Part shown: piece by piece, positions 4,559 to 59,710 of the stretch
How the letters are laid out: each line of letters begins with the position of its first letter
How positions within the stretch are numbered: position 1 is the first letter of the stretch
NCBI RefSeq assembly: GCF_050295395.1
Contig: NZ_JBNKPP010000092.1
Coordinates: 21,654-85,653 of the forward strand
DNA from: Agarivorans sp.
GTDB taxonomy: Bacteria; Pseudomonadota; Gammaproteobacteria; Enterobacterales; Celerinatantimonadaceae
Direction: 5' to 3'
DNA length: 64,000 nucleotides
Notes under the pieces: generated by a model
Seen by the model: only the letters and a program-made list of their open reading frames with translations
Database searches by the model: none
What the model was told of the DNA's origin: nothing
Position numbers and translations under genes: made by a program

Positions 4559-5746
4559 ATGAATATTCTATTCCACCATCGTACGCGAGGCAGAGGTGCT
4601 GAAGGTGTGCATATTCGCGGGGTGGTAAAAGGCCTGCGTGAATTGGGGCATAAGGTGAGTATTTTGTCTTTACCTGGTGCCGATCCAGAAGAAGAATTAG
4701 TCAATAAGGCTGCAACAGAGGCACCTAAACAAGCGCCAGCTAAAAACAAAAGCCTATTTTCGCGTTTAGCGGAATTGACTAAATATACTCCAGAGTTTGT
4801 TTTTGAATTGTTTGAGCTAGGCTTTAACCTATTGGCGTGGTGGCGTTTACGCAAAGCGGTGCATCAGCAGCAAGTGGAACTGATTTATGAACGTTATTCT
4901 TTGTTTATGTTTGCCAGCGTCTGGTGGGCTAAGCGTCATCAAGTTCCCATAGTTTTAGAGATTAACGACTCTTGCTTGGTGCATCGGGTTCGCCATTTGT
5001 TTTTCCAACGTATTGCGCGTGCCATAGAGTCATGGATTTTTAGTAATGCAACTGGCTTGGTATTTATCTCTAGTCGTTTTCAGCAAGTGGCCAAACAGGC
5101 TTACCCTGATATTGCACCTTCGCTGGTCTCGCCCAATGCCGCAGATTTAGACCAATTTGTGCTTAACGATGAGGCCGCTCTAGCACTGCGCCAACAGCTA
5201 CAAGTTGAAGATAAGGTAGTGGTGGGTTACGTAGGCGCTTTTGTGCATTGGCATGGCATAGATTGGTTTGTGGATTTAATTGCTGAGCGCTTAAAGGATT
5301 ACCCAAACGTAGTGTTGTTGTTAGTGGGTGACGGGGTGTGCTACTCCAGCATTAAGCAGCGCATTGCCAGCGCCGGTGCTGAGCAGCAAATTATTCTGCC
5401 GGGGCGGGTTGCCCATGACCAAGTGCCTAGCTATTTAGCCGCGATGGACTTTGGCATTTTGCCAGACTCAAATGATTATGGTTCGCCGATGAAGCTATTT
5501 GAGTTTATGGCAATGGCCAAAGGCATGGTAGCGCCAGATTTTACTCCCATTGCAGAAGTGGTCGCCGATGGTGAAACCAGTTGGTTGTTTAAGGCTAATG
5601 ATCGGGAGGCCTGTGTAGAACGAGTATTGGCCTTGTGTTCACAAGTCGAGGAGCAGCAACGAGTTGGCCAACAGGCGCGCCGCTACATCGAGCAGGAACG
5701 GCAATGGCGGCATAACGCAGAGCAATTACTGACATTGGTGAATTAA
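4559..5746 (+). CDS. Glycosyltransferase family 4
   Basis: GT-B fold motifs YERYS, GYVGAFVHWHG, SPMKLFEFMAMAK. Confidence 0.88.
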   Translation: MNILFHHRTRGRGAEGVHIRGVVKGLRELGHKVSILSLPGADPEEELVNKAATEAPKQAPAKNKSLFSRLAELTKYTPEFVFELFELGFNLLAWWRLRKAVHQQQVELIYERYSLFMFASVWWAKRHQVPIVLEINDSCLVHRVRHLFFQRIARAIESWIFSNATGLVFISSRFQQVAKQAYPDIAPSLVSPNAADLDQFVLNDEAALALRQQLQVEDKVVVGYVGAFVHWHGIDWFVDLIAERLKDYPNVVLLLVGDGVCYSSIKQRIASAGAEQQIILPGRVAHDQVPSYLAAMDFGILPDSNDYGSPMKLFEFMAMAKGMVAPDFTPIAEVVADGETSWLFKANDREACVERVLALCSQVEEQQRVGQQARRYIEQERQWRHNAEQLLTLVN

Positions 5747-58779: not shown

Positions 58780-58869
58780 ATGGCTTTTTCAAGTTTTCGC
58801 GGTGCTTCAGGTGCAACCTTTTGTCCAAGTAAATCTAACGACCAGCAAACTCGTCGTGAAACAAAGTAA
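58780..58869 (+). CDS. Candidate 29-aa small ORF
   Basis: GAGG RBS, MAFSSFRGASGATFCPSKSNDQQTRRETK*. Confidence 0.4.
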   Translation: MAFSSFRGASGATFCPSKSNDQQTRRETK

Positions 58870-58903: not shown

Positions 58904-58929
58904 AAGCGCTTATCTACAACTAAGCGCTT
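58904..58929. terminator. Shared terminator hairpin between two convergent small transcripts
   Basis: AAGCGCTTA-TCTACAAC-TAAGCGCTT perfect 9-bp stem; TTTATT follows on the minus strand, CTGCTTTTCTT on the plus strand. Confidence 0.7.
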
Positions 58930-58967: not shown

Positions 58968-59144
58968 TTAATTGGCTCTAGGCCGATAGCGATCATTGAA
59001 ATGACTCGCCTCATCGATATGTTTTAACTGGCTTAACTCACTGAAATAGAGAGACTTAGCTGAGTTTAGTGGTCGAGGCTGGTAATAACGCTTAGCCCTT
59101 GGCTGAGTGGTAATAAACGTTTCTTTTTGTATGGCTTCAAACAT
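58968..59144 (-). CDS. Unannotated 58-aa protein downstream of a SAM-II-like riboswitch
   Basis: AAGGAG RBS 6 nt before ATG; MFEAIQKETFITTQPRAKRYYQPRPLNSAKSLYFSELSQLKHIDEASHFNDRYRPRAN*; below the ORF-track length cutoff. Confidence 0.7.
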   Translation of the reverse strand: MFEAIQKETFITTQPRAKRYYQPRPLNSAKSLYFSELSQLKHIDEASHFNDRYRPRAN

Positions 59145-59174
59145 ACGAACTCCTTTATCTTAGTTCGCGCGCAG

Positions 59175-59228
59175 GGCGCTTTAGCTGTATTTGTTAGCCG
59201 CCCGCAAGTTGGCAATAAATCGGCGACA
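59175..59228 (-). ncRNA. SAM-II-type riboswitch aptamer
   Basis: GUCGCC-GAUUU-AUUGCCAAC-UUGC-G-GGCGGC-UAACAAAUACA-GCUAAA: P1 stem plus the GAUUU, UUGC and GCUAAA core elements in order. Confidence 0.8.
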
Positions 59229-59233
59229 CCCTT

Positions 59234-59262
59234 AAGATATACTTTAGACGTCTAGATGTCTA
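59234..59262 (-). promoter_or_regulatory. sigma70 promoter driving the riboswitch transcript
   Basis: -35 TAGACA (59262-59257), 17-bp spacer, -10 TATCTT (59239-59234); predicted +1 at the start of P1. Confidence 0.65.
59246..59261. promoter_or_regulatory. MetJ operator (two tandem Met boxes)
   Basis: AGACGTCT (8/8) + AGATGTCT (7/8). Confidence 0.88.
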
Positions 59263-59350
59263 ATCCCTTTTGCTTCCATCTCATAATTTTTAGTTATTTC
59301 GCTTGCTCACGGTTAGACTACAGATAAGTGATTGAGTGAGTAGATCTTAA

Positions 59351-59710
59351 ATGTTGCGTTTGTTTACCATGTTAATGGCTTGGCTGGCGGTAGTGCTGGG
59401 AACCATTGGCATCTTTCTTCCCTTATTGCCCACCACACCGTTTATTCTATTGGCGGTGATGCTGTTTTCCCGCAGTTCCCCGCGCTTTGAGGCTTGGTTG
59501 CATAATCACCCTCGGTTTGGCCCGCTGATTAACGATTGGCGCAACCATGGCGTGGTAAGTGTAAAAGCCAAGTGTAGCGCCACCATCATGGTGGGCTTTT
59601 CCTTGGGCTTGATGCTGTGGATGAAGCTACCCCAATTGGCTATGTGGCCAGCTATCGCCTGTTTAGCCGCGGTAATGATATTTTTGTGGACTCGCCCTTC
59701 CCAAAAATAA
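59351..59710 (+). CDS. ybaN: YbaN (DUF454) family inner-membrane protein
   Basis: GIFLPLLPTTPF.LLA, RSSPRF..WL..HP.FGP.I.DW. Confidence 0.9.
   Translation: MLRLFTMLMAWLAVVLGTIGIFLPLLPTTPFILLAVMLFSRSSPRFEAWLHNHPRFGPLINDWRNHGVVSVKAKCSATIMVGFSLGLMLWMKLPQLAMWPAIACLAAVMIFLWTRPSQK

Follow-up and report, generated by a model that had tools for sequence, protein, structure and literature searches.

A probable SAM-II riboswitch of the beta-/gammaproteobacterial subclass downstream of tandem Met boxes in Agarivorans

We analyzed a 64,000-nucleotide (nt) stretch of Agarivorans sp. DNA (contig NZ_JBNKPP010000092.1 of assembly GCF_050295395.1; hereafter the window), in which an earlier note had flagged a 54-base intergenic site as an S-adenosylmethionine (SAM) riboswitch of the SAM-II type. 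Comparison with related sequences indicates that the site is very probably an aptamer of the SAM-II class, belonging to a beta-/gammaproteobacterial subclass. The arrangement as a whole is best explained, and in our view likely, as a SAM-II riboswitch at the 5' end of a short monocistronic Agarivorans mRNA, which would act together with the MetJ repressor in a translational shut-off. SAM-II is reportedly the metA motif of Corbino et al. 2005, and its crystal structure is said to have been described by Gilbert et al. 2008.

We located the elements of the putative aptamer on the minus strand of the window (Table 1). The P1 helix, the GAUUU...UUGC segment, the A-rich loop L3 and the GCUAAA motif named in the earlier note are all present there, in the order and spacing of a SAM-II pseudoknot. 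The GAUUU motif follows the 5' strand of P1, CUUGC is found 1 nt before the 3' strand of P1, and GCUAAAG comes after the 11-nt A-rich L3 and is directly followed on its 3' side by a CGCC tail. P1 is fully paired in the window, with five G-C/C-G pairs and one U·G pair out of six, and the complementarity of CUU.GC with GC(U)AAAG that forms the P2b pseudoknot helix is present as well. The AACUUGC variant seen here is common to SAM-II elements from metagenomes and from Gemmatimonadota.

We scored the site against known RNA families. In a scan of the 551-nt intergenic region with 4227 Rfam families, SAM_alpha (RF00521) was the sole match, covering the full length of the model (21.4 bits, E 0.015), and neither SAM-V (RF01826) nor the SAM-II long-loop family (RF01726) matched at E ≤ 10. 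An E-value scan of the whole window places the same SAM_alpha match at E 1.7, beside five chance-level matches to unrelated families, and at the gathering threshold the whole window yields no match. The check by covariance models proposed in the earlier note thus came out positive for SAM_alpha, but the score falls below the Rfam gathering threshold of 36 bits, and the SAM-V and long-loop models found nothing. The note would have taken the lack of any such hit as evidence against its reading, and a hit is lacking only in the narrow sense of this sub-gathering score. The window sequence by itself is a borderline case. RF00521 also matches the homologous site in four other Agarivorans loci (21.8-27.1 bits). 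Clear gamma- and betaproteobacterial SAM-II elements upstream of metZ/metX reach only 22.9-33.1 bits with this model, whereas a classical alphaproteobacterial example scores 74.7 bits. Because RF00521 under-scores these undoubted members, its curated threshold is no membership test for the beta/gamma subclass, and a sub-gathering score reflects the reach of the model as much as the membership of the site. A large metZ/metX subclass in beta- and gammaproteobacteria is missed by this threshold, and annotation pipelines therefore under-report such riboswitches.

We searched species-representative genomes with the signature GATTT-N5-12-CTTGC-N7-TAA-N6-10-GCTAAAG and recovered at least 120 loci. 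Among the matches listed, P1 is in register in 131 of 139 unique sequences, with the six bases before GATTT pairing with the six bases before TAA. The main subclass, which in the matches listed comes from beta- and gammaproteobacteria, has the core gCGCC-GAUUUga…CAGCUUGCGGGCGC-UAAyAAAUrCrGCUAAAGCG, and its gammaproteobacterial sources include Competibacter, Thiothrix, Acidiferrobacteraceae and metagenome-assembled genomes (MAGs) of Pseudomonadales. An intrinsic terminator usually comes next, often with a CUUUAGC anti-sequence, and the genes located 3' of these elements encode pyridoxal phosphate-dependent enzymes of cysteine and methionine metabolism (metZ/metY type), aspartokinase-homoserine dehydrogenase and MetX-like hydrolases. 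A covariance model of the subclass (R2), built from 125 relatives with the window lineage excluded, assigns 61.2 bits to the window site (E 6e-16) and about 53 bits to classical alphaproteobacterial SAM-II elements (for example L015). The agreement between the window and the subclass reaches positions that the search pattern leaves free, namely the P1 sequence, the GCGG following CUUGC, and AAAUACA. Across 104 aligned members, 95.9% of the P1 cells are paired and five of the six pairs show both-sided changes; none of 500 shuffles reached as high a value, and slid registers all remained far lower. The P2b bases never vary and are fixed by the search patterns, and hence stand outside this covariation assessment. 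The SAM-II-type reading of the earlier note is thus supported by the sole intergenic Rfam match, by the subclass consensus and by the family-wide covariation of P1, and the comparative data lift the aptamer assignment well above chance, much more so than the window sequence alone.

Several further observations concern the subclass and its relatives. R2 gave a second match in the window, at 4674-4761 on the plus strand (14 bits), which we judged to be due to chance: it lies within a 395-aa open reading frame (ORF) and contains neither GAUUU nor CUUGC. This ORF belongs to an apparent polysaccharide-synthesis gene cluster. The opposite strand of the beta/gamma-type loci (L011, L036, L042, L047, L051 and others) weakly matches the Burkholderia small RNA (sRNA) family Bp2_287 (RF02424). 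Tandem SAM-II aptamers within about 130 nt of each other are found in several metagenomic or MAG loci: L128 (10-77 and 153-222), L140 (2816-2883 and 2690-2758), L083, L135 and L028. Aptamers of the AACUUGC type that lack terminators precede ORFs of about 125 aa for which there is no Pfam match (L126, from 11016 onward; L132, from 8034 onward; and L135, where the ORF starts about 46 nt after the aptamer). These products share the motif ...W-(K/N)-(L/V)A...GxHL...SREAGHKPN / KSAGRKPS, and they look like another orphan family under putative SAM-II control.

We compared the leader among Agarivorans loci. The HemL protein encoded in the window falls into a cluster with Agarivorans gilvus at ≥90% identity, and the source of the window is A. 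gilvus itself or a near relative. All loci have in common the gene order hemL, small ORF, DUF454/ybaN, riboswitch with small ORF, dUTPase_2 and mrcB, and in about ten lineage loci the order of Met boxes, aptamer, hairpin H1, hairpin H2 and small ORF is kept, with variation confined to the hairpin loops. Conservation of the leader begins exactly at the first base of P1. The window and locus L001 differ at 2 of 84 leader nt, as compared with 58% synonymous-site difference (pS 0.58) in the adjacent ORF. Both leader changes are neutral to the predicted structure: a C→U change turns the closing G-C pair of P1 into G·U, and the other change is located within the H2 loop. These rates indicate that the leader is under purifying selection. 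Within the lineage, P1 varies in its closing pair, G-C or G·U (L001 versus L002), and in its second pair, U·G or C-G. No variation is seen in GAUUU, AACUUGC, the L3 core or GCUAAAG, not even where the identity of the ORF product drops to 33-42%.

We next consider the promoter region. The geometry of the -10 element in a predicted sigma-70-like promoter puts the start of transcription at about 59226-59228, approximately the first P1 base, as the earlier note had it; the promoter ends 7 nt before P1, and its geometry is the same across the Agarivorans leaders. SAM-II elements usually begin a few nt after a promoter (Corbino 2005, PMC1273637). The Met boxes that the earlier note described next to the site are indeed there: with 15 of 16 positions agreeing with the consensus, they form the sole such match in 64 kb, where 0.08 would be expected. 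They are kept in all Agarivorans-lineage loci as AGACATCT followed by AGACG(G/T)C(C/T) or AGATGGC(T/C), or as GGACGTCT GGATGTCT, the form found in L159, and the variation across lineages is thus box-like. Agarivorans was placed in the Alteromonadaceae, Alteromonadales, and the genus presumably encodes MetJ by analogy with its order, since a survey found the repressor in 9/9 genomes of 'various Alteromonadales' (PMC4239095). Public RNA runs yielded only low-depth contigs from an estuary metatranscriptome, and these contigs cover both the aptamer and the ORF.

Could the resemblance to SAM-II be fortuitous, with the conserved block representing a DNA-level regulatory region or an unrelated RNA? 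We regard this as extremely unlikely. The sub-gathering Rfam score with its window-wide E-value would agree with such a coincidence, and the Met boxes as well as a conserved palindrome farther upstream are DNA-level signals in the region. However, the likeness spans the full length, keeps P1 in register and is found again at the homologous site of four other Agarivorans loci, as judged by a model (RF00521) that never saw the window. The site also resembles, base for base, more than 100 elements located upstream of met genes, including at positions that the pattern leaves free, and the conserved block begins exactly at P1, on the transcribed side of the promoter.

The palindrome-like site is located at 59283-59297 on the minus strand, ~20 bp upstream of the Met boxes. 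Its sequence is ATAACTAAAAATTAT in the window and ATAACT-N3-AGTTAT in Agarivorans proper, and it belongs to a block of strong conservation that lies between the promoter of the riboswitch and a divergent ybaN-like gene. It is possibly the operator of another regulator. Outside Agarivorans, the named proteins closest to the divergent YbaN/DUF454 protein (59351-59710, plus strand) are mostly alphaproteobacterial, with 45-55% identity, and include proteins from Rubellimicrobium, Sinorhizobium and Rhizobium. As alphaproteobacteria are the clade richest in SAM-II, this kinship could hint at a horizontal origin of the region.

Table 1. Positions of the candidate riboswitch, its promoter region and its transcription unit in the window
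Feature	Sequence	Coordinates	Strand	Remarks
Tandem Met boxes	AGACATCT AGACGTCT	59246..59261	minus	MetJ operator-like; overlap the -35 hexamer
Sigma-70-like promoter	-35 TAGACA (59262-59257), 17-nt spacer, -10 TATCTT (59239-59234)	59234..59262	minus	predicted by consensus scan only
Whole aptamer (putative)		59227→59175	minus	lies in the 54-base site of the earlier note
P1 5' strand	GUCGCC	59222..59227	minus	Rfam alignment
L1 (GAUUU...) and P2 5' strand (...AACUUGC)	GAUUUAUUGCCAACUUGC	59204..59221	minus	GAUUU and CUUGC are highly conserved RF00521 positions
Spacer	G	59203	minus	between P2 5' strand and P1 3' strand
P1 3' strand	GGCGGC	59197..59202	minus	Rfam alignment; covariation
A-rich L3	UAACAAAUACA	59186..59196	minus	fits the subclass consensus UAAyAAAUrCr
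P2b 3' strand	GCUAAAG	59179..59185	minus	contains a bulged U (59183); able to pair with CUU.GC at 59204-59208; unchanged in every lineage copy
Hairpin H1	GCGC-CCU-GCGC	59169..59179	minus	predicted; located where the 3' strand of P2a would be expected
Hairpin H2	GCGAACU-AAGAUAAAGG-AGUUCGU	59145..59168	minus	predicted; 10-nt loop; no spacer after H1
58-aa ORF	MFEAIQKET...SHFNDRYRPRAN	58968..59144	minus	putative target gene; no known family
Bidirectional terminator-like hairpin	stem AAGCGCTTA...TAAGCGCTT	58904..58929		closes the short transcript; stem conserved in syntenic loci

Downstream of the aptamer, two hairpins are predicted ahead of the ORF. The stem of H1, GCGC(C)/(G)GCGC, does not vary among lineages, and its loop has six forms (CCU, CAAG, UAAG, CUAUUAA, AGCAU and UCUA). 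H1 abuts P2b and may substitute for P2a. The H2 stem is kept in all lineages except L151/L158, where its 5' strand became CAAACA and pairs perfectly with UGUUUG of the start region; L159 has one pair fewer. Overall, seven different sequences occur in the H2 loop; in at least five lineages, it is 10 nt long and has AGG at its end. The Shine-Dalgarno (SD) sequence AAGGAG (59150-59155) is found half in the H2 loop and half in the H2 3' strand, and the AUG at 59144 directly follows the hairpin, which thus half-hides the SD sequence 1-2 nt ahead of the AUG. The SD sequence, in its separate hairpin, is located 24-29 nt downstream of the aptamer.

These features together suggest the following mechanism. 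The two Met boxes cover the -35 element of the promoter, and transcription would start at P1 or right beside it. SAM-loaded MetJ would presumably occlude the -35 element and repress initiation. In the transcript, SAM would lock the H-type pseudoknot by analogy with the SAM-II class, with the U-tract of L1 placed in the groove of P2b (CUUGC with GC(U)AAAG) and the L3 adenines running along P1. The bound pseudoknot would remove a single-stranded A-rich stretch upstream of H2, which is a possible ribosome standby site. A continuous stack of P2b, H1 and H2 could then hold the SD hairpin shut, and translation would fall. The RNA layer and MetJ would in this way form a coherent two-layer, SAM-dependent shut-off. 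For the output taken by itself, we give a translational OFF switch about an even chance; the probability that remains beyond OFF and ON switches belongs to other outputs (stability, Rho) or to loss of function.

A number of findings weigh against the SAM-II and MetJ shut-off reading. For the aptamer, the Rfam score is below the gathering threshold and reaches only E 1.7 window-wide, and the R2 model is partly circular, as 20 fixed bases of the search pattern were derived from the window. P2a, a helix with good support in the class, is nearly absent, a weakness that the earlier note had correctly pointed out: GCC stands opposite GCC after GCUAAAGC, allowing for at most 2-3 pairs, as compared with 3-5 bp in the class. 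By hand inspection of the alignment, many relatives have 3-5 pairs at this site, and a search by eye turned up no P2a or anti-SD partner that is consistent across all the lineages. Within Agarivorans, P1 shows one-sided changes only and no double compensatory changes, and its terminal pair is a mismatch in L151/L158 and L159. For the mechanism, there is no metJ gene encoded in the 64-kb window, and the metatranscriptome contigs also enter the promoter region and thus do not locate the start of transcription. The window leader has no terminator after the aptamer. Constrained folding of the window predicts no ligand-dependent change in SD/AUG accessibility (AUG 0.31→0.29), and upon aptamer closure the predicted AUG accessibility changes with different signs between lineages, from 0.37 to 0.81 in Agarivorans albus and from 0.28 to 0.03 in L151. 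Finally, no link between the putatively regulated protein and methionine or SAM is known.

Some of these points would also fit a relic or re-purposed aptamer that has lost P2a and no longer binds SAM. The leader would then be constitutive, acting through mRNA stability or through protein or sRNA binding, and SAM control would be exerted by MetJ alone. The missing P2a, the lack of a predicted ligand-dependent switch in the window and a target that is not a met gene are all in line with this scenario, which we nevertheless consider very unlikely: GAUUU, CUUGC, the A-rich L3 and GCUAAAG are invariant across lineages whose ORFs retain 33-42% identity, and such invariance of the pocket in the face of ORF divergence is hard to explain without ligand binding. 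SAM-V moreover binds SAM although its final 3' pairing element is missing (PMC2704228), which shows P2a to be dispensable there. A missing P2a thus need not abolish binding.

An ON switch is a second way to read the folding predictions. Without SAM, the P1 3' strand and L3 (GGGCGGCU..CAAAUA) would pair with the start codon and codons 2-6, and SAM binding would free the AUG. Indeed, the unconstrained minimum free energy structure of the leader holds such a helix, with 4+6 bp in the window clade and 8+6 bp in the A. albus, Agarivorans litoreus and Alg241 lineages (duplex -17 to -19.5 kcal/mol), and the RNAalifold consensus retains the pairing of CAAAUA with UGUUUG. The AUG of A. albus is predicted to become more accessible on aptamer closure, and the native codons of the A. 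albus lineage rank in the best 3% of synonymous variants. The same synonymous-codon test failed, however, in three of six sequences (window, 42%; L151, 35%; L156, 41%). Cognate duplexes between aptamer and start site (-11.36 kcal/mol) do not exceed non-cognate ones (-11.37 kcal/mol) in stability (permutation p 0.45), and the anti-aptamer helix shows no compensatory changes. Accessibility in the window is unchanged and moves in the opposite direction in L151. An ON switch would also oppose MetJ repression at the same promoter, and we know of no natural SAM-II ON switch. We therefore think this output improbable.

The gene controlled by the putative riboswitch is a tiny ORF rather than a met gene, a feature that the earlier note did not mention. 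The ORF had no match in Pfam, NCBIfam, PHROGs or PADLOC, and a profile search of 1.8 billion representatives returned only Agarivorans homologues. An alignment scan of species-representative genomes for the small ORF found nothing; the Agarivorans family came from protein searches. Homologues are found only in Agarivorans species and in related marine and estuarine samples. They are 56-67 aa long with indels in frame, and the ratio of nonsynonymous to synonymous substitution rates (dN/dS) is 0.14-0.58 overall and 0.03-0.07 at both ends in the window clade. This pattern of substitutions indicates that the small ORF is protein-coding. The N-terminus, MFEA(I/V)QKET, and the C-terminus, F-x-D-(R/S)-(Y/C)-R-P, are conserved, and the middle is hypervariable. 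An AlphaFold model of the protein is uninformative (pLDDT 65, pTM 0.17). In a more far-reaching version of the SAM-II and MetJ arrangement, a P2a-reduced SAM-II variant with a stacking H1, in series with a MetJ operator, would control a small protein (MFEA-QKET/F-D-YRP) that has a role in methionine or SAM physiology, with the A. albus group perhaps using an ON switch; we put this forward tentatively and rate it as rather doubtful.

In the window clade, a conserved 29-aa ORF (58780-58869, plus strand; MAFSSFRGASGATFCPSKSNDQQTRRETK) is convergent to the small ORF, and in L003 it is also called as a gene. In its place, Agarivorans albus, litoreus and aestuarii have one to three tandem genes for secreted peptides of 63-65 aa (L153, 3408-4030; L155, 3245-3867; L156, 3244-3867, minus strand), which feature a signal peptide and a conserved C-terminus with two cysteines (...DRHTCQREALRGEVQSPFC). 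A riboswitch transcript that reads through would run antisense to these genes.

We compared the Agarivorans element to related systems. SAM-II was first described mainly in alphaproteobacteria, in a few other proteobacteria and in Bacteroides (PMC1273637), and a later account counts it as common in Alpha-, Beta- and Gammaproteobacteria (PMC2704228). A gammaproteobacterial SAM-II is thus not new in itself; the unusual point is that it occurs in a lineage that presumably bears MetJ. In their analysis of methionine regulons across Proteobacteria, Leyn et al. 2014 found SAM_alpha only in Rhizobiales and Rhodobacterales, and neither SAM_alpha nor a metXZ RNA element in 62 MetJ-bearing gammaproteobacterial genomes (PMC4239095). 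They described this metXZ RNA element as 'new', pseudoknotted and followed by a terminator in betaproteobacteria (PMC4239095), and it is probably the beta/gamma SAM-II subclass recovered here. Our literature search found no paper linking Agarivorans to a riboswitch of this kind.

The window element shares with SAM-II (RF00521) the H-type pseudoknot layout, the succession of promoter, P1, GAUUU, CUUGC, A-rich L3 and GCUAAAG with its bulged U, and the methionine/SAM context. It differs in its GC-rich P1 (GYCGCC/GGCGGC, compared with CGUGGU/GCCACG in the alphaproteobacterial consensus), in having AACUUGC in place of GGCUUGC, in a 3' hairpin that takes the place of P2a, in its sub-gathering score and in targeting a 58-aa ORF rather than metA/X/Y/Z/K. 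The metZ/metX subclass of beta- and gammaproteobacteria has a near-identical core and also scores below the Rfam gathering threshold. Its elements, however, mostly carry a terminator and control methionine biosynthesis, whereas the window has no terminator and has an SD hairpin behind Met boxes. SAM-V (RF01826) likewise is a SAM-II-like pseudoknot without P2a that acts on translation (PMC2704228), but the lengths and sequences of P1 and the loops in the window follow SAM-II. In Sinorhizobium meliloti, the start codon is also located tens of nt downstream of the SAM-II aptamer, and promoter- and RNA-level responses to SAM are layered; there, the SD sequence lies inside the aptamer, a terminator comes next and MetJ is absent, whereas the window has its SD sequence in a separate hairpin.

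Protein-based sensing of SAM has its textbook example in the MetJ-bearing gammaproteobacteria. As in the MetJ/Met-box systems of Enterobacterales, Vibrionales and Alteromonadales, tandem 8-bp boxes resembling AGACGTCT overlap the promoter in the window, but unlike the MetJ systems surveyed, the window joins a putative MetJ site with a putative SAM riboswitch in the same transcription unit. New here are the lineage, a presumably MetJ-bearing member of the Alteromonadales, the series of MetJ operator and riboswitch, and the orphan small-protein target under a terminator-less architecture in which a hairpin replaces P2a. If the reading is correct, one metabolite is read twice on a single transcription unit, by a protein and by an RNA, and a genus-restricted small protein is marked as part of the SAM/methionine response.

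DNA near-identical to the window also occurs in runs X2, X6, X10 and X11 of a coded 'organism A', as well as in marine, estuary and 'aquatic viral' metagenomes. The other libraries of organism A are oligo-dT or polyA RNA-seq, and organism A is thus probably a eukaryotic host. The bacterium appears to be host- or particle-associated.

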